From: an uncultured bacterium
GTDB taxonomy: Bacteria > Acidobacteriota > Vicinamibacteria > Vicinamibacterales > UBA8438
Assembly (NCBI GenBank): GCA_963934795.1
Contig: CAWWAF010000007.1
Span: 512 to 64,511 of the forward strand
Length of the DNA stretch: 64,000 nucleotides
Direction: 5' to 3'
The first letter of the stretch is position 1; the number at the start of each line of letters is the position of its first letter. Position numbers and translations under genes: made by a program. Below, one piece after another: positions 1-10,955 of the stretch. The notes beneath the pieces are model-generated. The model saw only the letters and a list, made by a program, of their open reading frames with translations. It had not been told where the DNA came from and searched no databases.

Positions 1-289
1 GGAATCGCGCGTCCGGGAACGGCAGGTGGGTCACGGTCGCCTGCCCGACCTGGCGTCCGGCGGCTCGAGCGCGTCGCACGCCGGCCCAGGCGCGGTCGAC
101 GCCGCGGGCCTCTCCATACCCGGCCAGGACCCCAAGATTGGTGCCTGTGCCGCAGCCACAATCCAGAATCTGCGGGTCCGTGTCGCCCGCAACCGCTCGC
201 TCGATGAGCGGCCGCACGAAGCGCCGAAGGCCTCGGAACCAGAAGTGCTGCTGTTCCGCCCGTGCGGTCGCGTCCAACAACCGGTCCAT
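1..289 (-). CDS. Class I SAM-dependent methyltransferase, N-terminal part (runs off the left edge; absent from the ORF track)
   Basis: Manual translation from ATG 289: MDRLLDATARAEQQHFWFRGLRRFVRPLIERAVAGDTDPQILDCGCGTGTNL...HLPFPDARF; SAM motif I (ILDCGCGTG) and post-II LPF motif. Confidence 0.85.
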   Translation of the reverse strand, partial: MDRLLDATARAEQQHFWFRGLRRFVRPLIERAVAGDTDPQILDCGCGTGTNLGVLAGYGEARGVDRAWAGVRRARAAGRQVGQATVTHLPFPDARF

Positions 290-356
290 GGGTCAGGCCG
301 CCCCGAGGGTACGCCATACAATCGCCGAAGACCGACGTGCAGAGCAGATAGGTAAG

Positions 357-1403
357 ATGGCTGAGAACATGATGGGCGACGACAACGCGTCATTCTACAA
401 GGGGCGACGCGTCTTGATCACGGGTGGACTCGGATTCATCGGGAGTAACCTCGCGACCCGCCTGGTGGCAGTCGGCGCCGACGTGCTCCTGGTTGACTCC
501 CTCACGCCGGACTACGGCGGCAACCTATTCAATATCGCGCCGATCCGGGACGCGGTGCGGGTCAACATCTCGGACGTCCGGGATGCCAACTCGATGCAGC
601 ATCTGGTGCAGGACCAGCAGGTCATCTTCAATCTCGCCGGTCAAGTGAGCCACGTCGACAGCATGCGAGACCCGTATACCGACCTCGAGATCAACTGCCG
701 GAGCCAGTTGTCGATTCTCGAAGCCTGTCGGCATCACAACCCGTCGGTCAAGGTCGTCTTCGCGGGCACCCGGCAGATCTACGGGAAGCCCGACGCGCTC
801 CCGGTCACCGAGGAGCATCTGGTCCGCCCCATCGATGTCAACGGCATCAACAAGGCCGCCGGCGAGTACTACCACCTGGTCTACAACAACGTGTTCGGTG
901 TGCGGTCGTGCTCGCTGCGGTTGACGAACGTGTACGGACCACGGCAACTGATGCGGCACAATCGTCAGGGGTTCATCGGCTGGTTCATCCGTCTCGCGGT
1001 GGAAGATCGGGAGATTCAGCTTTTCGGTGATGGGTCGCAACGGCGAGATTTCGTCTACGTGGACGATGCCGTAGACGCGTTTCTTCGCGCGGGCGCGTCC
1101 GACGCCTGCAACGGTGAGGTATTCAACGTCGGGGGCAGCGGACCGGTCTCCTTGGGCGAGCTGGCGACGCTGTTGGTCGAGGTGGCGGGCACCGGCCGCG
1201 TGCGCTTTGTGGACTGGCCAGCGGAGCGCCGGGCCATCGACATTGGAGACTTCTATGCCGACTCGTCCAAATTCAAACGCGCGGTGGGATGGTCTGGCAC
1301 GGTGCCCCTGCGCGACGGCTTGACCCGTACCGTCGCGTACTATCGGGACCACCTGTCAGAGTACATTGACGCACCGCTCGATACGCCGGCGGACGCACCA
1401 TGA
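357..1403 (+). CDS. NAD-dependent nucleotide-sugar epimerase/dehydratase (extended SDR)
   Basis: VLITGGLGFIGS Rossmann motif, FNLAGQVSH, NxxNK in place of YxxxK, LRLTNVYGP, RDFVYVDD; start moved from 138 to ATG 357. Confidence 0.9.
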   Translation: MAENMMGDDNASFYKGRRVLITGGLGFIGSNLATRLVAVGADVLLVDSLTPDYGGNLFNIAPIRDAVRVNISDVRDANSMQHLVQDQQVIFNLAGQVSHVDSMRDPYTDLEINCRSQLSILEACRHHNPSVKVVFAGTRQIYGKPDALPVTEEHLVRPIDVNGINKAAGEYYHLVYNNVFGVRSCSLRLTNVYGPRQLMRHNRQGFIGWFIRLAVEDREIQLFGDGSQRRDFVYVDDAVDAFLRAGASDACNGEVFNVGGSGPVSLGELATLLVEVAGTGRVRFVDWPAERRAIDIGDFYADSSKFKRAVGWSGTVPLRDGLTRTVAYYRDHLSEYIDAPLDTPADAP

Positions 1404-2515
1404 CCAACCAGCGCGTGAACTGGATCGATCTGCGTCCTCGAGAAGACGCCGAGGATGTCGCGGCGGCCATTCGGCGCGTTGTGGATCGCGGGTGGTTCGT
1501 CCTCGGCCCCGAGGTGGAGGGCTTCGAAGCAGAGTTCTCAGACGCCACGAGCAGCCAGCACACGGTCAGCCTCGCTTCCGGCACCGACGCCTTGACGCTG
1601 ACGCTCCGAGCGTTGGGCATCGGCCCAGGCGATGAGGTGATCACCACGCCGCTGTCGGCAGCCTTCACCGCACTGGCCATCATGATGGCAGGCGCACGAC
1701 CAGTGTTCGCGGACATCGACCCAGACCGTCTGACCGTGGACCCTGCCGCCGTCGAGTCCCTCATCGGGCCATCCACCGCCGCGATCATGCCGGTGCATCT
1801 GTATGGACAGCCGGCCGATATCCCGGCGCTCGCCCGGGTGGCGGACCAGCACGGGCTCGCCCTTATTGAAGACTGCTGCCAGGCACACTTGGCGACCTGC
1901 CAGGGCGTCCCTGTAGGCACGACGGGTATCGCCGCAGCCTACAGTTTCTATCCGACGAAGAACCTCGGGGCGTTCGGAGACGGCGGTGCCGTGTGCACGC
2001 GAGACGCGGCGCTCGACACCCGACTGCGGCGATTGCGCAATGGGGGCCAGACCACCCGGAACCACCACGTGGAGGCGGCCGCCCATTCGCGACTCGACGA
2101 GATGCAGGCCGCGGTCCTGCGTGCCAGGCTCCCCTATCTGGCTGGCTGGACTACCCGGCGCCGGACTCTGGCCGCCCAGTATCGAGCGGGCCTGACGGAC
2201 ACGACGGGCACAGCGGTCGTCGTTCCGCCAGCCTGTGATCCTGGCCACGTGTATCACTTATTCCCGGTCAGGACCGCCGACCGGGACGGTCTGCGAGAGC
2301 ACCTGCACGCGCGCGGCATCGACACGCTCATCCATTACCCGACCCCGCTCACGAACCAACAAGCATTCGCCGACGCGAGGCCCAATCATTGCCCGGTGGC
2401 AACCTCCGTCTGCGACGAGCTAGTCTCTGTCCCACTCTACCCGGGGCTGACGGACGCCGCCGTCACCCGGGTGGTCGGCGCGCTGACCGATAGCAGCCTC
2501 GGCGCAAGACGGTAG
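1400..2515 (+). CDS. DegT/DnrJ/EryC1/StrS family PLP-dependent sugar aminotransferase
   Basis: [35 protein letters not shown] (PLP lysine); ATGA overlap with the epimerase stop. Confidence 0.92.
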
Positions 2516-2570
2516 TACCGGATCATTGCGTAGACCACCACCCCTGGCACGCATTCACGGAAGCAGACTA

Positions 2571-2801
2571 GTGCACGGCGACGACGAAGATACGCAGACC
2601 TATCGGGTCGTGGTTAACCACGAAGAGCAATACTCGATCTGGCCCGACACCAAAGACAATCCGCCCGGCTGGCGCAACGTCGGAACAACAGGCTCAAAGG
2701 CGAAGTGCCTGGACTACATTTCCGAGGTGTGGACCGACATGCGACCGCTCAGCCTCAGGCAACAGATGGCTGCGGCCGCGGCCGCAGCGAAGAAAGGCTG
2801 A
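2571..2801 (+). CDS. mbtH: MbtH-like protein (NRPS adenylation-domain accessory protein)
   Basis: [13 protein letters not shown]...PPGW...[17 protein letters not shown] with all three conserved Trp; GTG 2571 preferred as start (76 aa). Confidence 0.93.
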
Positions 2802-2825
2802 CGACGGCGTCGCGGTTGAGGTGGG

Positions 2826-2888
2826 CGAGCCACGGTAGGATGGTCGGATAATGGGGCGGCCGAGCCACGATAGGATGGTCGCATCATG
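2826..2888 (+). repeat. Imperfect 28-bp direct repeat, period 35, containing a TAGGAT -10-like box and an ATG in each copy
   Basis: 2826-2853 cgagccacggtaggatggtcggataatg versus 2861-2888 cgagccacgataggatggtcgcatcatg (25/28 identical). Confidence 0.8.
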
Positions 2889-3644
2889 ATGCGCCCGCAC
2901 AGCGCCCCGCCGCTGACGCTGCCCGCTGGCCACGCGCACCTGTGGTGGGCGATACCGGAACATTTCACCGACGCACGTGAACTGGCGCGCTATCGCGCGG
3001 TCCTGAATGATGAGGAGCGCCAGAAGACGGATCGGTTTCGTTTCGCTCGGGACCGGCAGCTCTGTCTCCTGGCGCGCGTACTCGCGCGCACGACCTTGTC
3101 CAGGTATGACAGCGTCGGCCCGGCAGACTGGCGCTTCCGCAGCAATCGCTACGGTCGACCGGCCATCGAGACGCCGACCTCATCGCTGCACTTCAACCTC
3201 TCCCACACGAACGGCCTGGTGGTGTGTCTCGTCTGCCGCGACCGCGAGGTCGGTGTGGATGTCGAGCCACGCAATCGCTCGGGCGAATGGCTCGACCTGG
3301 CCACCCGCTTTTTCTCGCCCGGGGAGGCCGCCGCACTGCGCCGGGTTGAGGCGCATGAGCGCCCCCGCCGGTTCCTCGAGTACTGGACCCTGAAAGAGGC
3401 GTACATCAAAGCACGCGGCATGGGTCTCGCGATTCCATTGGGCGATTTTTCCTTCGACTTGCCGCCTCAGCGTCCGAACGACGTGCGGATTCGGTTTGCC
3501 GCCACCCTCGACGACACCCCTGCGCGTTGGCAATTCGGCGTGGGCCCACTGGGCGATCACCATCTCGTCGCGACAGCGGTCGAGATCGATGCCGGCACCA
3601 CAATCCACATCACCACTCGCGAAGCGGCGAGCCCGCTCCTCTAG
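2886..3644 (+). CDS. sfp: Sfp-type 4'-phosphopantetheinyl transferase
   Basis: YGRP, FNLSHT, VGVDVE and WTLKEAYIKARGMGL motifs. Confidence 0.92.
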   Translation: MMRPHSAPPLTLPAGHAHLWWAIPEHFTDARELARYRAVLNDEERQKTDRFRFARDRQLCLLARVLARTTLSRYDSVGPADWRFRSNRYGRPAIETPTSSLHFNLSHTNGLVVCLVCRDREVGVDVEPRNRSGEWLDLATRFFSPGEAAALRRVEAHERPRRFLEYWTLKEAYIKARGMGLAIPLGDFSFDLPPQRPNDVRIRFAATLDDTPARWQFGVGPLGDHHLVATAVEIDAGTTIHITTREAASPLL

Positions 3645-3645
3645 T

Positions 3646-3723
3646 GGCCCGTGGCCACGGGCCGACCAGGACCGCCGTGGCGGGGCTCCTCAGTCGTGGC
3701 GCGCCCGCCGTGCGCACCACGAC
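3646..3723. terminator. Two GC-rich inverted repeats between convergent genes, possible bidirectional terminator
   Basis: Perfect 18-bp palindrome ggcccgtggccacgggcc (3646-3663) and hairpin gtcgtgg...ccacgac (3693-3723); no U-tract. Confidence 0.4.
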
Positions 3724-3724
3724 G

Positions 3725-4573
3725 TCAGCGGTGGTACTCGGGCCCGCCCGTCTGACGAGGGGTGGCCGGTCCAGGCAGGATTTCGCGCAGGTAGCCGTCG
3801 ATCCCGCGCTCGCGGTGCCAATGCTTGGGATATCCAAGCGACACCTCCTCGAACCGAACCCCGTCAACCCAATCGGTCGCGCGAATGTGCAGGTGCCCGG
3901 ACACGACCACCCGTGCCCCGAAACGCGTGTGCCACTGCTCGGTCAGCCGCGTGCCGCACCAGGGCGAAAACCGCGGAATACGGTGCAATCGCACGAGGTC
4001 CTGTCTGAGTGGATAGTGATTCACCAGAATCGACGGCGCCGTCGCGCAGGCCTCGGCCAGCCGCGCTTCGCTGTACGCCACCCTGGCGTGGCACCAGGCC
4101 GTGCGGCTCGCATACGGATCCGGCGCCAGGCATCGCTCGTCGGCGCTACGAATGCCGTCCTCCCAGGCCCACGCCACCGCGTCCTCCGGCGCCACAACGT
4201 CCGGTCGAAATGTGTAGTCAAAGAGGACGAACAGGGGAGCAATCACACACGGCGGATCCCCGGGCCAGACCACGTACGGGTCCTCGGGGGTGAGCACGCC
4301 GAATCGGCGACACACGTCGACCGCTGCCTCGTACTTCGCGACCCCCCGGGGCCCCTCACTCCGAGCACTCCAGAGCTCGTGGTTCCCGGGCACCCAGAAC
4401 ACTTTCGCGAACCGGTCGGTCGCCGCCGTCAGACCGAGTTCCAGATGGGCCAGCGTCTCTCCGACATCGCCGGCGAGAATCAGCCAGTCGTCCGGACGCG
4501 CCGGCCAGTCGGCAAGGGCCTCCCGATTGGGTCGGTGACCCAGATGCAGGTCCGCAAGCGCGTAGAGCTTCAT
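3725..4573 (-). CDS. pptH: Calcineurin-like metallophosphoesterase of the PptH (carrier-protein phosphopantetheine hydrolase) type
   Basis: ADLHLG, DWLILAGDV, KVFWVPGNHELW, TPEDPY, LFDYTF, VNHYPL, WCGT, GHLHI, FEEVSLGYP; these follow the motif order I recall for M. tuberculosis PptH (Rv2795c); adjacent to a PPTase. Confidence 0.75.
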   Translation of the reverse strand: MKLYALADLHLGHRPNREALADWPARPDDWLILAGDVGETLAHLELGLTAATDRFAKVFWVPGNHELWSARSEGPRGVAKYEAAVDVCRRFGVLTPEDPYVVWPGDPPCVIAPLFVLFDYTFRPDVVAPEDAVAWAWEDGIRSADERCLAPDPYASRTAWCHARVAYSEARLAEACATAPSILVNHYPLRQDLVRLHRIPRFSPWCGTRLTEQWHTRFGARVVVSGHLHIRATDWVDGVRFEEVSLGYPKHWHRERGIDGYLREILPGPATPRQTGGPEYHR

Positions 4574-4597
4574 ACGAGGGGAGGCGCAGCCGACGCC

Positions 4598-5701
4598 TTA
4601 CGGATGGCAGGGACGCGGCACCGACTCGCCGACATGGTAAATCGCACACTCCAGGGCACCGGACGCGTCCACCGAGACAAGACCGAACTGATTCACGATG
4701 TCGTTCGGGGGCATGGACGCACCCTGTTACACCCCTGTCCAACCACTCAGGTCCCACCCTCTGTCCGAGAAATCCGTCAGCGGATCCGAGACCGACCGAG
4801 CCAGACGACTACCGCCGGATGTACCGGAGACATTGACGCTGAGCATGTCACGCCCCCCGCGGGTGAGACGCAGGACTTCGTAGGTGTGCGTGTGTCCGGT
4901 CAACACGACATCGACACCACCGTCGATCAGTATCTCTGGCAGTGTTCGCTCGCCGTGGGCGGCGTAGGAACCATTCCAGAGACACCGGGCGTGACCCTCG
5001 TGTTTGGAGGCCGAGAGGATCGTCGTGTGGTGAAACGCGACCACCGTAGGTCCTTCCCAGGCTTGGGCCAGCTCATCGGCAAGCCAGCTCAGTTGCTCCG
5101 CCCCGCGCGCGCCAGCCGAATATCGTTCCCGGCAGGCCCCCCGGGCTGGATACACGAGATCGTTGCTGTCCAGCACCAGTAGCCGGAGCGGCCCCACGGT
5201 CTTCGCGTAATACAGGCGTTCCTCGCGAAACTGGTCGCGACCGATGACGTCGCCGAGGAATTCCACGACGTGCCCTTTCGCCGCCGTGTCGTCATCGTCA
5301 ATCTCGTGATTGCCAACGGCCAGCAGATAGGGCAACCCGTCGACCACCGACAAAATTTTCTCCAGCTGCACGAACTGGTCGCGGAAGGTGCCGTTTTCGA
5401 CGATGTCGCCGGTGTCGAGCAAGAACAGCGGCGGCGGTTCGAGCGCGCTGACCTGGCGAAGTAGCGCGTCCCATTCACCGCTCTTGGCCAGCCCCTTCTG
5501 ATCCCCGAAGATGGCAAAGCGGAACGGCGGCTGGGTCGCCTGCGTGACGCTGTCAAAGGATGGATGGGCCAACCGAGGGACCGGCTGCGAAGAACTACGG
5601 GCCCAATAGCATCCAGTAGACAGCACCACCGCCGACAACAGGCACGCCCAACGCGCCTGCGACCACATGCACCTGACCGTCGACACCTTACGCACGCTCA
5701 T
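4598..5701 (-). pseudogene. Lipoprotein calcineurin-like metallophosphoesterase interrupted by in-frame TAA at 4727-4729
   Basis: Lipobox LSTGC; FGD, DTGDIV, GNHE, FHH, GHTH motifs; the frame continues past the TAA for 42 codons (QGASMPPNDIVNQFGLVSVDASGALECAIYHV...) to TAA 4598-4600. Confidence 0.65.
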
Positions 5702-5786
5702 ATCACCAAGCGTACACGGAACCGGCCGCGACGCGCGCCCAGACCGGACCAGACGAGGGGACGTCTCTTGTGGAAACCTGATGATC

Positions 5787-5810
5787 GAACAAATGCGGAC
5801 GCGCGGCGTA
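5787..5810 (+). promoter_or_regulatory. Possible ECF sigma promoter upstream of the ABC operon
   Basis: GAAC-N16-CGTA, 20 nt before ATG 5830; short motif that could occur by chance. Confidence 0.25.
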
Positions 5811-5829
5811 TTACTGTCGAGGCGACACG

Positions 5830-6767
5830 ATGCAGACAACCATTCCGGCGGCGATTGAGTGCCACAAGCTCGTGAAGCGGTTTGCGGACAAGATCGCGGT
5901 GAACGAACTCGACCTGACGGTGCCGACGGGCAGCATCTTCGGGCTGCTCGGGCCGAACGGGTCCGGCAAGACATCGACCATCCGCACCACCCTCGGTATC
6001 TACGTGCCAGATGGCGGCTCGGTCAGTCTTCTCGGTGCCGCTGATCCGCTTGCGGTCAGGCATCGGGTCGGCTATCTCCCGGAGGAGCGCGGACTCTACG
6101 CACGGATGCGGGTTGGAGAACAGCTGGCGTTTCTCGCATCCATTCGCGGACTGGACACCCAAGAGGCGCAACGGCGCGCCGACGATTGGCTCGAACGCGT
6201 CGGACTGTCCGCCAATGCCCAGTCGCTGACGAGCGAGCTATCCAAGGGGATGCAGCAGAAGGTGTAGTTCGCAGCCGCGGTCATCCATGACCCGGACCTG
6301 ATCGTCCTCGACGAGCCCTTCACCGGGCTCGACCCGGTCAACACGCGGTTACTGAAGGAGCTGATTTTGGAACAGCACGACCGTGGCGCCACGGTGGTGA
6401 TCTCCACGCATCGTATGGAGCAGGTGGAGGCACTGTGTGACGCGATCTGCCTCATTCACAGGGCCGGCCGGTCCTGGAGGGGAATCTTGCCGCCATCAAG
6501 GCCGGCTACGGGCGAAACACCATCGCCGTCGAGTATCACGGGAGTCGGGGAACGCTCGGTGCGCTCGCCGGCATCCGGCGCTGCGAAGACACGGGGCACG
6601 AGGCCCGTCTGGAACTCGAACCGGACACGGACCCCCAGACCGTGATGCGGGCGGTGCTAGTTCGGGTAGCGATTCAGTCGATCAAGCTGGACCACTCGCA
6701 CATCGAGGAAATCTACTTGGCAACCGTCGGACACCGAGACGCCTCCCCGGAGGGAGCCACGCGATGA
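5830..6767 (+). pseudogene. ABC-2 type exporter ATP-binding subunit, broken by TAG (6265-6267) and a 1-bp deletion in the G-run at 6461-6463
   Basis: Walker A GPNGSGKT; signature LSKGMQQKV*FAAAVIHDPDLIVLDEPF (Walker B follows the stop); adding one G restores HRGRPVLEG...EEIYL to TGA 6765-6767, which overlaps the permease ATG. Confidence 0.88.
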
Positions 6768-8041
6768 CGAATCTGACACAGATCGCGAAGATCGCCCGCC
6801 GCGAATATCTGGCTCGGGTGCGGAGCCGAGCGTTCATCTTCATGACCATTCTCGTCCCGGGTTTCATGGTGGCGTACGGCTTCGTCATGCCCGCGATCTT
6901 CTCGGGGTCCGGCACCGAGGAACTGCGGGTGGCGGTCGTCGATACCGGCACGGGATTGACGACGCCACTGGTCAATCACCTCGGCGACATCGAGCGACCG
7001 CGTGTCGTCGTCACTACTCAGGCGGCGATACCGGACGACTCGGAGACATCGCGCGCGCCGTTCACAACGGCGGTCCGTGACGAGGACATCGACGGATACC
7101 TGCTCCTTCAGGAGGACCCGGAGATCGTCGCCCGAGGCCGCTACTACGCTCGCGAGACCGGCAACCCCACTGTGCTCCGCGCGCTCGAGCGCGCCGTGGA
7201 AGCGACGGTGCTGGACGAGCTGCTCGTCGATACGGGGGTCGACGTCGATCAGGTGCGCTCACTCCAACGCGCAGACCTGGCCACCGTGACGGTCTCGGCC
7301 GACGGCGAGAATGCGGGTGGGTTCCGGGCGACGTTCGTCAGCACGTTCGTCCTCGCCATGCTCCTCTATATGGCAGTGCTCATCAACGGCCAGGGTATGG
7401 CCATGGCGATCGTGGAGGAGAAGTCATCACGGTTAATCGAGGTCATCCTCGGCGCCGTGACGGCGACAGAGTTCATGGCCGGCAAGATTCTGGGGGTCCT
7501 CGCGTCCGGGCTCACCCAGCTCGGCGTCTGGGGGCTCGCCTCACTCTTCGCGCTGCTCTACGCGATGCCGATGCTGTCCATCGGCGCAGATCTGACGGGC
7601 TTCGACTTGAGCACGGTTCTCGACGGACGCCTCCTGTTTTACTTCTCGGTGTTCTTCGCCCTGGGCTATTGCCTGTATTCGATTCTCTTCGCGACTATCG
7701 CGGCCACCTGCACCAGCACGGAGGAACTCAGCCAGTCTATGTTCGCGGCGGTCCTCCCGATGGTGCTGGCGCTCATGTCGACGTTATACGTCATCGCCAA
7801 CCCGAGCACGACAGCGGCTCGGGTCCTCAGTCTGTTCCCCCCCTTCACGCCATTGGTCATGCTGGGCCGCGTCAACGTCCTCCCACCGCCGCTCTGGGAA
7901 GTCTGGCTGAGCATCGGACTGCTCGTGCTGGGGATCGTCGCCTCCGGTTGGGTCTCGGCCAAGGTCTTTCGCTACGCGCTCCTGATGCACGGCAAACGAC
8001 CGACGCTCCCCGACCTGCTCGGGGTCATTCGCGCGTCGTAG
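6764..8041 (+). CDS. ABC-2 type exporter permease (NatB/YhaP-like)
   Basis: IARREYLARVRSRAF N-terminus, VEEKSSRLIEVIL motif, GKILG, multiple TM helices; true start is ATG 6764, not 6437. Confidence 0.9.
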   Translation: MTNLTQIAKIARREYLARVRSRAFIFMTILVPGFMVAYGFVMPAIFSGSGTEELRVAVVDTGTGLTTPLVNHLGDIERPRVVVTTQAAIPDDSETSRAPFTTAVRDEDIDGYLLLQEDPEIVARGRYYARETGNPTVLRALERAVEATVLDELLVDTGVDVDQVRSLQRADLATVTVSADGENAGGFRATFVSTFVLAMLLYMAVLINGQGMAMAIVEEKSSRLIEVILGAVTATEFMAGKILGVLASGLTQLGVWGLASLFALLYAMPMLSIGADLTGFDLSTVLDGRLLFYFSVFFALGYCLYSILFATIAATCTSTEELSQSMFAAVLPMVLALMSTLYVIANPSTTAARVLSLFPPFTPLVMLGRVNVLPPPLWEVWLSIGLLVLGIVASGWVSAKVFRYALLMHGKRPTLPDLLGVIRAS

Positions 8042-8093
8042 GGACCGACGCTCGGAGGTAGACTGGGGCCTGCGCAATCGTGCGCCGAACGGA

Positions 8094-10955
8094 GTGCGAA
8101 TGCCACAGTCACACGCTCGCTCGCTTTTGGCGACCCTGCTCTTGCCGTTGCTGGCCTGCACGACCGCCCCCCCTGCCGAGACAGACGCCGACGCCAGCCG
8201 CGAGCTGGAGCTTCCGTTTGAGGCGTTCACGCTCGACAACGGCCTCGAGGTATTGCTGCACCAGGACCATTCGGACCCGGTGGTCGCGGTGGCGGTGCTG
8301 TACCACGTCGGTTCGGCGAGGGAGAGCCCAGGGCGAACCGGGTTTGCGCACCTGTTCGAACATCTGCTCTTTCAGAACTCGGAGAACGTCGGCCCCGGGG
8401 GCTTCATCAATGGCGTCCCGGCGCTCGGTGGCACCTTCAACGGCGGCACCTCCAACGACACGACGATCTACTACGCGGTCGTGCCGCAGGACGCCCTTGA
8501 GCGTGTCTTGTGGATGGAATCAGACCGCCTCGGCTTCTTCATCAATACGGTGAACGAGCCGAGCCTCGAAAACGAAAAACAGATCGTCAAGAATGAAAAG
8601 CGGCAGAGTTACGACAACCGGCCCTACGGGCACACCGGGTTCGTGGTCGACTCGCATCTCTATCCAGAAGACCACCCCTACAGCTGGCAGATCATCGGTT
8701 CGCTCGATGATCTGCAGTCGGCGACGCTGGACGATGTCCGGCAGTTCTACGAGCGGTACTACGGTCCGCAGAACGCGACCCTGGTCGTCGCCGGCGACTT
8801 CGACTCGGAGCAGGCCCGCGAGCTGGTCGAGACCTATTTCGGCGAAATCACGCGGGGCGACGCCATTCCACGCCGAGCGCCCGCGCCCGGCGTGATTCAC
8901 CAGACCACCCGGCTGGTGCACGAAGACAACTTCGCCCAGCTCCCCATGCTGACCATGGCGTGGCCCACGGTGGAGGCATACCATCCCGATTCTTACGCGC
9001 TGGACGCCCTCAGCGCGCTGCTCGCCGACGGGCGCACGTCGCCCTTCTATCAGGTCGTCGTAGAGGAGGACATGCTCGCCCCGGACGTCAATGCGCGTCA
9101 CCCACAGCGCGAACTGGCGGGTCAGTTCCAGCTCTCGGCCCGGGCATTCCCGGACACCGAACTCGATGACGTGCTCGCCAGTTTCGACCGCGCCTTTGCG
9201 CGGTTCGAATCAGCAGGCGTGAGCGAGGCGGACCTGCAGCGGATCACGGCCGGACTCGAGACCGGGTTCTACGGCGGTATCGCGAGCGTGCTGGGCAAAT
9301 CGTTTCAACTCGCGAACTACAGCGTCCTTGCGGGCGACCCCGGATTTATCAGCGAGGACCTGCGTCGGCTACGCGCGGTCACCGCCGACGATGTGATGCG
9401 TGTGTATCGGGATTACGTGGCCGGACGACCCCACATCGCTACCAGTTTCGTGCCGCAAGGCGGCCTCGACCTGGCTCTCGACGGCTCCACGGTGGCCGAG
9501 GTGGTCGAAGAAGCCATCGTGTCAGAGGCCGAGCCGACCGCGCCCGTCGCCGCCCCCCCCTCGTTCGAGAAGACACCATCTGGTATCGACCGATCCACGC
9601 CGCCGCCCCTGGCCGAGCGCCCCCAGCTGCGGGTCCCCGGTGTCTGGTCAGCCGAACTGGCGAACGGGATGCGGGTCCACGGTATCGAGCACCGGGAGCT
9701 CCCGCTCGTGCAGTTCAGTATCCGACTCGACGGCGGTCGTCTGCTCGACACGCCCTCGCGACCCGGTGTGGCGAACCTGGTGTCCGACCTGCTGATGGAG
9801 GGCACACAGACCAGGACGCCGGAGGAACTCGAAGTGGCCATCGACACGCTGGGGGCCACCATCACCGTCAGCACGTCCAATGAAGCGGTCACCCTCCGCG
9901 CCACGACGCTGGCCCGCAACTACGGCGAGACACTGTCGCTGGCCGAAGAGATCTTGATCGCACCGCGATGGGACGCCGATGCCTTCGAGTTGGCGCGGGA
10001 TCGGACACTCAGTCAGATCCGCCAGCAAGACGCCGCCCCCACTGCCATCGCAGGCACGGTCCTGAATCGGCTGCTGTACGGTCCAGACCACATCCTCGCG
10101 CACAACGCGCTGGGCACGAACGAATCCGTGTCGGCCATCACGCTGGAAGATCTCCAGACCTTTTATCGCGACAGCTTCTCACCGTCGGTCGCCACCATGC
10201 ACGTCGCGGGCGACATCGACCAGGCAGAGGTTGTCGCGTCGTTGGCCAGCCTGGAGGCGCGCTGGCCCGCGCACGCGGTGTCCATCCCCGATTACTCCGT
10301 GCCTGACGCGGCAGAGACCCCTCGGGTGTACTTCGTCGATGTCCCGAACGCGCCGCAGTCGGTCATCAGCGTCGGCCAGATGGCGATGGCCCGTACCGAC
10401 CCCGACTACTACCCCGCCACCGTCATGAATCATCGGCTCGGCGGTGGCATCACCAGCCTGCTCTTCCAGCGACTGCGGTTGGAGCGCGGGTACAGCTACG
10501 GTGCCGGGTCCAGTTTGCGCGGGGGGCGGATTCCGGGGCCATTCGTCGCGAACACGAGTGTGCGCGCCAATGTGACCTACGAGTCGATGGACTTGATCAG
10601 AGAGATTCTCGAAGGGTACGGGTCCGAGTACACCGCCGCTGACCTTGAGGCCAGTCGCGAAGAGTTGGTGCGAGGCAACCTGCGCGCCTTCGAAACCCTG
10701 GGGGCGCTGCTGAGTATGCTCCAGAACATCAGCGCCTACGACCTCCCGACCGACTACATCAGCCAGCGGGAGTCCACGATCGCCGGTTTGACAGCAGATG
10801 ACATACGCAGCCTCGCCCGCACCCATCTGAGCCCCAACCGCATGATCTACGTCGTGGTCGGCGACGCGCGTACGCAGTTCGACCGACTGGGCGCGCTGGG
10901 CCTGGGCACCCCGATGCTCGTGGACCGCAACGCGCAACCGGTCACGGCGAACTGA
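8094..10955 (+). CDS. M16 (insulinase/pitrilysin) family zinc peptidase, lipoprotein
   Basis: GFAHLFEHLLF (HxxEH), FNGGT, duplicated M16 halves, lipobox LLAC. Confidence 0.92.
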   Translation: MRMPQSHARSLLATLLLPLLACTTAPPAETDADASRELELPFEAFTLDNGLEVLLHQDHSDPVVAVAVLYHVGSARESPGRTGFAHLFEHLLFQNSENVGPGGFINGVPALGGTFNGGTSNDTTIYYAVVPQDALERVLWMESDRLGFFINTVNEPSLENEKQIVKNEKRQSYDNRPYGHTGFVVDSHLYPEDHPYSWQIIGSLDDLQSATLDDVRQFYERYYGPQNATLVVAGDFDSEQARELVETYFGEITRGDAIPRRAPAPGVIHQTTRLVHEDNFAQLPMLTMAWPTVEAYHPDSYALDALSALLADGRTSPFYQVVVEEDMLAPDVNARHPQRELAGQFQLSARAFPDTELDDVLASFDRAFARFESAGVSEADLQRITAGLETGFYGGIASVLGKSFQLANYSVLAGDPGFISEDLRRLRAVTADDVMRVYRDYVAGRPHIATSFVPQGGLDLALDGSTVAEVVEEAIVSEAEPTAPVAAPPSFEKTPSGIDRSTPPPLAERPQLRVPGVWSAELANGMRVHGIEHRELPLVQFSIRLDGGRLLDTPSRPGVANLVSDLLMEGTQTRTPEELEVAIDTLGATITVSTSNEAVTLRATTLARNYGETLSLAEEILIAPRWDADAFELARDRTLSQIRQQDAAPTAIAGTVLNRLLYGPDHILAHNALGTNESVSAITLEDLQTFYRDSFSPSVATMHVAGDIDQAEVVASLASLEARWPAHAVSIPDYSVPDAAETPRVYFVDVPNAPQSVISVGQMAMARTDPDYYPATVMNHRLGGGITSLLFQRLRLERGYSYGAGSSLRGGRIPGPFVANTSVRANVTYESMDLIREILEGYGSEYTAADLEASREELVRGNLRAFETLGALLSMLQNISAYDLPTDYISQRESTIAGLTADDIRSLARTHLSPNRMIYVVVGDARTQFDRLGALGLGTPMLVDRNAQPVTAN

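Follow-up and report, generated by a model that had tools for sequence, protein, structure and literature searches.

MbtH-like proteins and 4'-phosphopantetheinyl transferases (PPTases) are the usual trans-acting helpers of megasynthases, and in Mycobacterium tuberculosis sensitivity to inhibitors of one such transferase, PptT, is determined by PptH. The paper that characterised PptH called it both "unique to mycobacteria" and "limited to mycobacteria" (PMC8557913), and no description of PptH homologues outside mycobacteria was found in the searchable literature. Like AcpH, the acyl carrier protein (ACP) phosphodiesterase of Escherichia coli and Pseudomonas, PptH is broad in specificity and non-essential, and the physiological role of both enzymes is unknown (PMC8557913). 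Here we analyse a 64-kb stretch of a soil Acidobacteriota (Vicinamibacterales) genome (contig CAWWAF010000007.1; hereafter the window) in which adjacent genes encode an MbtH-like protein, an Sfp-type PPTase and a metallophosphoesterase of the PptH family; L-numbers denote the relative and homologue loci compared with the window. The locus is best read as an ordinary member of a widespread and under-described PPTase/PptH write-erase pair, with a predicted hydrolase activity and putative carrier-protein clients encoded elsewhere. What appears to be new is a PptH-family member in a new phylum, a partner PPTase of a different subfamily, an extra MbtH gene, and a pair that is common across many phyla.

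A PptH-family phosphoesterase in the Vicinamibacterales

The gene at 3725..4573 (minus strand) encodes a 282-amino acid (aa) PptH-family metallophosphoesterase, a putative phosphopantetheinyl hydrolase, which carries the motifs DLHLG (residue 8), AGDV (34), GNHE (63), VNHYP (184), WCGT (205), GHLHI (226) and FEEVSLGYP (241). A sequence search of the entire PDB returned 6UNC with an expectation value (E) of 1.1e-75, the next metallophosphoesterase following at E 0.26, and pairwise alignment with M. tuberculosis PptH gave 46% identity over 272 aa (E 2e-81). The title of 6UNC names PptH of M. tuberculosis, and its sequence matches without a difference (100% identity) 324/327-aa proteins encoded on NCBI contigs longer than 1 Mb (one of them 4.35 Mb), whose nearest relatives are Mycobacterium proteins. 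An AlphaFold2 model of the 282-aa protein (predicted local distance difference test score, 78.6; predicted template modelling (TM) score, 0.83) gave the same picture in Foldseek, where the top four matches were the chains of 6UNC (TM 0.79-0.81, E about 1e-27) and the next was GpdQ (TM 0.46, E 1e-6); other metallophosphoesterases (GpdQ, LpxH, Rv0805, Mre11 and purple acid phosphatase) did not exceed a TM of 0.51.

In an alignment of 14 diverse family members, the binuclear-metal motifs (D8/H10, G35-D36, G63-N64-H65, N185-H186 and G226-H227-L228-H229) and the family-specific blocks LF.L.DY.F, WCGT and FEEVS.GYP are invariant. The substitutions C225R and H246N inactivate M. tuberculosis PptH (PMC8557913). 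These two residues fall on the cysteine within WCGT and on the first histidine of GHLH, that is, on C206 and H227 of the window protein, and both are invariant across the 14 members; the mapping uses an inferred constant offset in the 6UNC chain (index equal to native number plus 3), which is consistent for both residues. A tree of 90 family members placed the window protein within a Vicinamibacterales clade (Shimodaira-Hasegawa-like approximate likelihood ratio test support of 99). Taken together, these results show that the phosphoesterase is a true PptH homologue and no close orthologue of the mycobacterial enzyme.

Identical copies of the protein occur on five further independent metagenome contigs. 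In relative L091, in which gene order is the same and the DNA about 85% identical, the PptH, PPTase and MbtH proteins are 92%, 86% and 73% identical to those of the window, and the corresponding ratios of nonsynonymous to synonymous substitution rates (dN/dS) of 0.10, 0.17 and 0.27 indicate that all three genes are under purifying selection. A preliminary description of this DNA had reported three adjacent genes with intact motifs, and their coordinates, strands and intactness were confirmed, as was every phosphoesterase motif it listed; its MbtH and Sfp-type PPTase calls were right (PF03621 for the former, PF22624 and PF01648 together with the motifs for the latter), and the resemblance to PptH, which it had proposed to check against Rv2795c, was borne out by both that alignment and the predicted fold (TM 0.8 to 6UNC).

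PptH-family genes recur beside a PPTase

The partner gene (2886..3644, plus strand) encodes a 252-aa Sfp/HetI-type PPTase with the domains PF22624 and PF01648 and the motifs VGVDVE (residue 122) and WTLKEAYIKARG (residue 167); it converges tail to tail with the PptH-family gene, with 80 bp between them. Its closest solved relative is Sfp (1qr0, E 6.6e-23), and this match, the two-domain architecture and the motifs place it in the Sfp type (family II). The top NCBIfam match was HetI, but at 122 bits it falls far below the equivalog cut-off of 370, and the protein is therefore not an orthologue of HetI. Orthology to PptT was likewise ruled out, since the N-domain family is PF22624 rather than the PF17837 of PptT, the neighbour of pptH in M. 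tuberculosis, and since no PptT structure matched the window PPTase even at E 10.

The PptH family has many members. Of the 8,000 candidate database clusters that were scored, more than 7,800 matched with E under 1e-10. Scanning a single genome of each species with sequence patterns that would miss even the M. tuberculosis protein yielded at least 564 PptH-family loci outside Actinobacteria. Linkage was assessed at the best 80 loci (Acidobacteriota, Chloroflexota, Myxococcota, Alpha-, Beta- and Gammaproteobacteria, Planctomycetota, SAR324 and Omnitrophota) by searching 10 kb on either side with a hidden Markov model (HMM) refined in successive rounds from the window PPTase. At 30 of these loci an Sfp-type PPTase gene is found no more than 1 kb from PptH, and at two more it is within 5 kb, although very divergent PPTases at loci scored as unlinked may be missed by an HMM built from Sfp/HetI-like sequences. 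The linked loci come from Acidobacteriota, Alpha- and Gammaproteobacteria, Myxococcota and Chloroflexota, and their orientations are evenly divided among convergent (10), PptH followed by PPTase as in M. tuberculosis (10) and PPTase followed by PptH (10), with none divergent. On the tree, the adjacency state changed at least 12 times, compared with 26 in shuffles, and the arrangement at least 14 times. Within the window's own Vicinamibacterales clade the genes converge in the window, L006, L008, L010 and L016 and follow the M. tuberculosis-like order in L011-L015, indicating that adjacency survived inversion.

A Pfam tally of the immediate neighbours at unlinked loci showed no family in more than four loci (Peptidase_S51 in four, a Crp-type regulator in three), and no PPTase family matched two or more of these neighbours, although families with a single match may fall outside the 25 listed. 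Since no other neighbour family exceeds four loci, the PPTase is the one specific and recurrent partner of PptH. The partner is Sfp/HetI-like here and has a different N-domain family in M. tuberculosis, where PptH precedes PptT with a 4-nt overlap, so the pairing holds across PPTase subfamilies. This recurrent adjacency constitutes good comparative evidence that the PPTase and PptH work on the same thing.

Several further observations were made at the sampled loci. Peptidase_S51 genes stand directly upstream of PptH in the Thermoanaerobaculia-like loci L017, L023, L029 and L034, with start and stop codons touching or 8-23 bp apart, and the Crp-type regulator is directly upstream in the Leptofilum/Anaerolineae loci L042, L047 and L053. 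Long open reading frames (ORFs) beside PptH in other loci were considered as megasynthases and rejected; the ones that were tested proved to be RTX repeats or DUF2298 or lacked any match in Pfam, and they are probably spurious frames in high-GC DNA. Taxonomic labels clash with the PptH tree in L055, L041, L057 and L063 ("Bifidobacteriaceae" within Vicinamibacterales, "Comamonas" within Myxococcus, and "Enterobacter*"), likely because of mislabelling or bin contamination. Finally, gene calls in three mycobacteria-like metagenome proteins (P0157, P0236 and P0239) join PptH with PPTase domains (Metallophos with 4PPT_N or ACPS) and could be read-through of overlapping pptH-pptT or real fusions.

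The MbtH-like gene

Upstream of the PPTase, a 76-aa MbtH-like protein is encoded at 2571..2801 (plus strand; PF03621 at 1.5e-23 and 82 bits, the cut-off being 27); all three of its signature Trp residues are kept (SIWP, PPGW and VWTDMRP). MbtH is a separate gene in the window, in L001 and L002 (the same 76-aa gene) and in L091, and is absent from L008 and from L010, where the stop codon of a DegT aminotransferase gene overlaps the PPTase start. In an 84%-identical relative (L006, 10872-11795, and L007, 10811-11734, both on the minus strand), an in-frame fusion joins it to the PPTase in a 307-aa protein with MbtH and both PPTase domains; the tail of MbtH, the spacer and the opening residues of the PPTase are deleted. 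No further MbtH-PPTase fusion was present among the best 150 of 53,107 representative matches. The fusion is lineage-specific. Judging from this distribution, MbtH lies outside the conserved core, as a lineage-specific and recent addition to the PPTase-PptH pair.

Elsewhere, MbtH keeps company with megasynthase genes. In L021, from a Thermoflexales metagenome-assembled genome (MAG; 1-7363), the order is polyketide synthase (PKS; ketosynthase-acyltransferase-ketoreductase-ACP, KS-AT-KR-ACP), MbtH, PptH, type II thioesterase and PPTase, and in L033, from an alphaproteobacterial MAG (1-10819), a thioesterase, MbtH, PPTase and PptH follow a nearby gene for an ammonia-lyase/adenylation-domain protein. 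A 70%-identical MbtH in another Vicinamibacteria MAG belongs to a thioesterase-PPTase-MbtH-NRPS cluster (nonribosomal peptide synthetase, NRPS, of more than 4,100 aa) that lacks PptH. Because MbtH recurs with the pair and a type II thioesterase at the edges of PKS/NRPS clusters in distant groups, the Chloroflexota and Alphaproteobacteria, the window MbtH is best read as an NRPS helper that settled beside a general PPTase, implying putative NRPS clients elsewhere in the lineage.

The preliminary description had treated the three genes as a unit, and although their order, including mbtH, is kept in L091, what is conserved more widely is the PPTase-PptH pair, with MbtH either missing (L010 and L008) or fused (L006/L007). 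It had also contrasted the convergent layout with the co-transcribed actinobacterial pair; the genes do converge here, but this is one of three equally common arrangements (10 each of the 30 linked loci) and is not special. Nor is the arrangement singular, since the pair is widespread across phyla and the locus is thus a new member of a large family.

Proposed function

These comparisons make it likely that the locus encodes an antagonistic carrier-protein pair in which the PPTase loads phosphopantetheine, the PptH homologue removes it and the clients are encoded in trans. The Sfp-type PPTase would move 4'-phosphopantetheine from coenzyme A (CoA) onto the conserved serine of apo acyl or peptidyl carrier proteins, and the PptH homologue, by means of its predicted binuclear metal centre, would hydrolyse the serine-phosphopantetheine phosphodiester and return holo-carriers to the apo form, as in M. 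tuberculosis. The MbtH-like protein is most likely a chaperone for the adenylation domains of NRPSs from other loci. Here the pair is not part of a biosynthetic cluster; it adjoins the 3' end of what looks like an operon for an envelope aminosugar and presumably serves distantly encoded carriers in trans, the identity of these clients being inferred. The convergent layout permits independent transcription of the two genes, and any regulatory meaning would be an extrapolation from it, as nothing in the sequence shows regulation.

Some observations weigh against this reading. To our knowledge, experimental work on PptH has been carried out solely in M. tuberculosis, so that the biochemistry is confined to the mycobacterial member. 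In the tree of 90 members the Mycobacteriales proteins group apart from the others at the end of a long branch (length about 1.0), and substrate preference could therefore differ in non-mycobacterial members. Furthermore, 46 of the 80 sampled loci have no adjacent PPTase, and since the partner PPTase belongs to a subfamily other than that of PptT, the pair is not simply an inherited M. tuberculosis operon. Finally, the physiological role of PptH is unknown in M. tuberculosis itself, where roles in CoA salvage and virulence were not detected (PMC8557913).

A broader possibility, which we regard as speculative and clearly less likely than the antagonistic pair alone, is that PptH and the Sfp-type PPTase form a pan-bacterial module for carrier-protein maintenance, sporadically accompanied by MbtH and a type II thioesterase and, in one lineage, with MbtH fused to the PPTase. 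Such a module would act in quality control by removing acyl-phosphopantetheine arms that are mis-primed or have reached a dead end, which would free the carriers for another round of priming. If true, this would account for the retention in bacteria of an enzyme that reverses an essential modification. The fusion also hints that MbtH can tether the PPTase to NRPS adenylation domains.

Alternative explanations

The phosphoesterase might instead aid the PPTase by clearing a by-product or analogue (3',5'-ADP, CoA or dephospho-CoA), with non-mycobacterial members of the family not acting on holo-carriers at all. Gene adjacency fits cooperation as well as antagonism, a long branch separates the non-actinobacterial members from the Mycobacteriales clade, and M. 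tuberculosis PptH shows generic phosphodiesterase activity on bis(p-nitrophenyl) phosphate (bis-pNPP) (PMC8557913). Nevertheless, the 46% full-length identity, the retention of all family-specific motifs and the conservation of both M. tuberculosis loss-of-function positions make such a helper function improbable. In addition, M. tuberculosis PptH acts broadly on foreign carriers of both fatty acid synthase (FAS) and NRPS systems (PMC8557913), and lineage-specific recognition would therefore be unnecessary.

Another explanation would be that the PPTase serves the sugar genes upstream of it, for example by priming a carrier for acylation of an envelope glycan, with PptH and MbtH as bystanders. 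The PPTase closes a co-directional plus-strand run that opens with an NAD-dependent sugar epimerase/dehydratase (369..1403; PF01370 at 2.6e-49, and PF16363; start codon uncertain), 95% identical to its L091 homologue, and continues with a DegT/DnrJ/EryC1 sugar aminotransferase (1400..2515, plus strand; PF01041 at 3.3e-106) whose start overlaps the epimerase stop. The aminotransferase is ArnB-like, its top NCBIfam match being UDP-Ara4N aminotransferase at a score under that model's cut-off, and its dN/dS relative to L091 is 0.13. The genes upstream resemble an Arn-like operon for an envelope aminosugar, in which the PPTase comes last. In favour of a functional connection, the PPTase is co-directional with the epimerase and DegT genes, the DegT stop overlaps the PPTase start in L010, and a glycosyltransferase family 2 (GT2) gene lies 61 bp upstream of the PPTase in L008. 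The operon has, however, no carrier protein, ligase or acyltransferase genes in the window, L091 or L010, and PPTase-PptH adjacency is kept across phyla without sugar genes, all of which renders this explanation very unlikely. The Arn-like locus spans 2-2515 in the window, 1-9930 in L091 and 10059-17872 in L010; the window part holds a divergent methyltransferase, the epimerase/dehydratase and the ArnB-like DegT gene, to which the relatives add GT2 and a 561-aa DUF6311 membrane protein.

The idea that the three genes are the edge of an NRPS/PKS cluster, with megasynthases just past the left end of the window, is favoured by the position of mbtH only 2.5 kb from that end, by the contigs of several relatives that end nearby too, and by L021, L033 and L090, in which such genes flank megasynthases. 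It is already largely refuted and retains little credibility. The flank of L091, which reaches 10 kb further left, encodes a methyltransferase, GT2, the 561-aa DUF6311 membrane protein, FKBP, an NHL-repeat protein, an unknown gene and an amidase, and the flanks of L010 (PptH 87% identical) and L008 (76%; on a 2.5-Mb contig) match it and are free of megasynthases. By synteny with L091 and L010 there is thus no megasynthase in about 10 kb left of the window edge, and no PKS/NRPS-like gene was found in the 60 kb right of the locus. The largest ORF of the window, of 953 aa, is an M16 peptidase by synteny, and seed searches for KS-AT, KR, ACP, adenylation-domain and type II thioesterase sequences found no match within the 64 kb. 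That no NRPS or PKS is nearby had been noted in the preliminary description and is upheld by the size of that ORF, the negative seed searches and the left flanks of L091 and L010. As far as the window and its syntenic relatives reach, the evidence supports the conclusion that the locus is no NRPS/PKS cluster flank; among the 80 sampled loci, PKS/NRPS-like genes lie within 10 kb in only about seven.

Least credible is the view that the adjacency is meaningless, owing to chance or to common descent in a few lineages: it is missing from more than half of the sampled loci and shows clustering on the tree (12 changes, compared with 26 in shuffles), but it occurs at 30 of the 80 loci in three orientations, survived inversion in one Vicinamibacterales clade, exists in M. 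tuberculosis with a different PPTase subfamily and has no rival neighbour in more than four loci, and PPTases are present in only a few copies per genome.

Other features of the locus

The spacer between MbtH and the PPTase is filled by two tandem copies of a 35-nt unit (2817..2886; 83% alike) that end at the PPTase ATG; L091 lacks the duplication and has a spacer of 15 bp. Directly 3' of the PPTase stop, within the 80-bp convergent spacer, folding predicts an 8-bp GC-rich palindromic hairpin (3645..3664), a possible two-way terminator for which the evidence is weak: folding of the entire spacer gave a z-score of only -1, no better than shuffles, and a scan for consensus terminators found nothing at the hairpin. 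Scans for promoter and terminator consensus sequences and a search of Rfam gave no match in the locus.

A second, unrelated metallophosphoesterase gene (4727..5701, minus strand; PF00149 at 5.8e-14; start at 5701 or 5668) lies upstream of the PptH gene on the same strand. Its product has a hydrophobic signal-like N-terminus, and it was seen only among the closest relatives (L001-L007, L010 and L091). A frame change near its 3' end splits the gene in L001 (876-1977) and L002 (1328-2429), and it is intact in the window, L003 and L004. Beyond it, an ABC-transporter ATPase gene (5830-6760, plus strand) is broken in the window by an in-frame TAG (6265-6267), where the L008 homologue reads on, and by a frame change near 6460. 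Since the same breaks recur in the independent contigs L001, L002 and L004, they are probably real in the population. The whole ABC pair (about 5715-8042) is absent from L091.

Significance and comparison with known systems

For this genome, the locus adds an otherwise ordinary annotation, and the wide spread of the pair is useful but would be readily revealed by a database search. The spread suggests that cycling of carriers between holo and apo forms is general in bacteria rich in secondary metabolism and no mycobacterial oddity, and together with the repeated PPTase adjacency it gives comparative-genomic leverage on the purpose of phosphopantetheine removal. The relatives also offer enzymes from non-pathogens for biochemistry.

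The closest known system is PptH/PptT of M. tuberculosis, and AcpH is an analogue of a different fold. AcpH resembles the window protein in the proposed reaction, removal of 4'-phosphopantetheine from holo-carriers, which here is predicted from sequence, but it has a non-homologous HD-domain fold, whereas the window protein is a calcineurin-like metallophosphoesterase. Sfp of Bacillus subtilis and HetI of cyanobacteria share the two-domain architecture and motifs of the window PPTase, which is orthologous to neither. Accessory genes of NRPS/PKS clusters (MbtH, type II thioesterase and Sfp-type PPTase) are similar in the presence of MbtH and the PPTase, and the relatives L021, L033 and L090 occur in that context; in contrast, the window has PptH added and lacks both a thioesterase and a megasynthase, the latter over about 10 kb to the left (by synteny) and 60 kb to the right. 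Relative to M. tuberculosis PptH/PptT (Rv2795c, PDB 6UNC, and Rv2794c), the window pair belongs to another phylum, its genes are convergent rather than overlapping and co-directional, its PPTase is Sfp/HetI-like (PF22624) rather than PptT/EntD-like (PF17837), and MbtH stands upstream; its PptH is also about 40 aa shorter than Rv2795c (282 compared with 324 aa), the alignment starting with residue 3 of the window protein and residue 20 of the chain in 6UNC. The two systems are nevertheless alike in having a homologous hydrolase with the same predicted fold, metal-ligand and family motifs and equivalents of C225 and H246, encoded directly beside an Sfp-class PPTase and outside a PKS/NRPS cluster.

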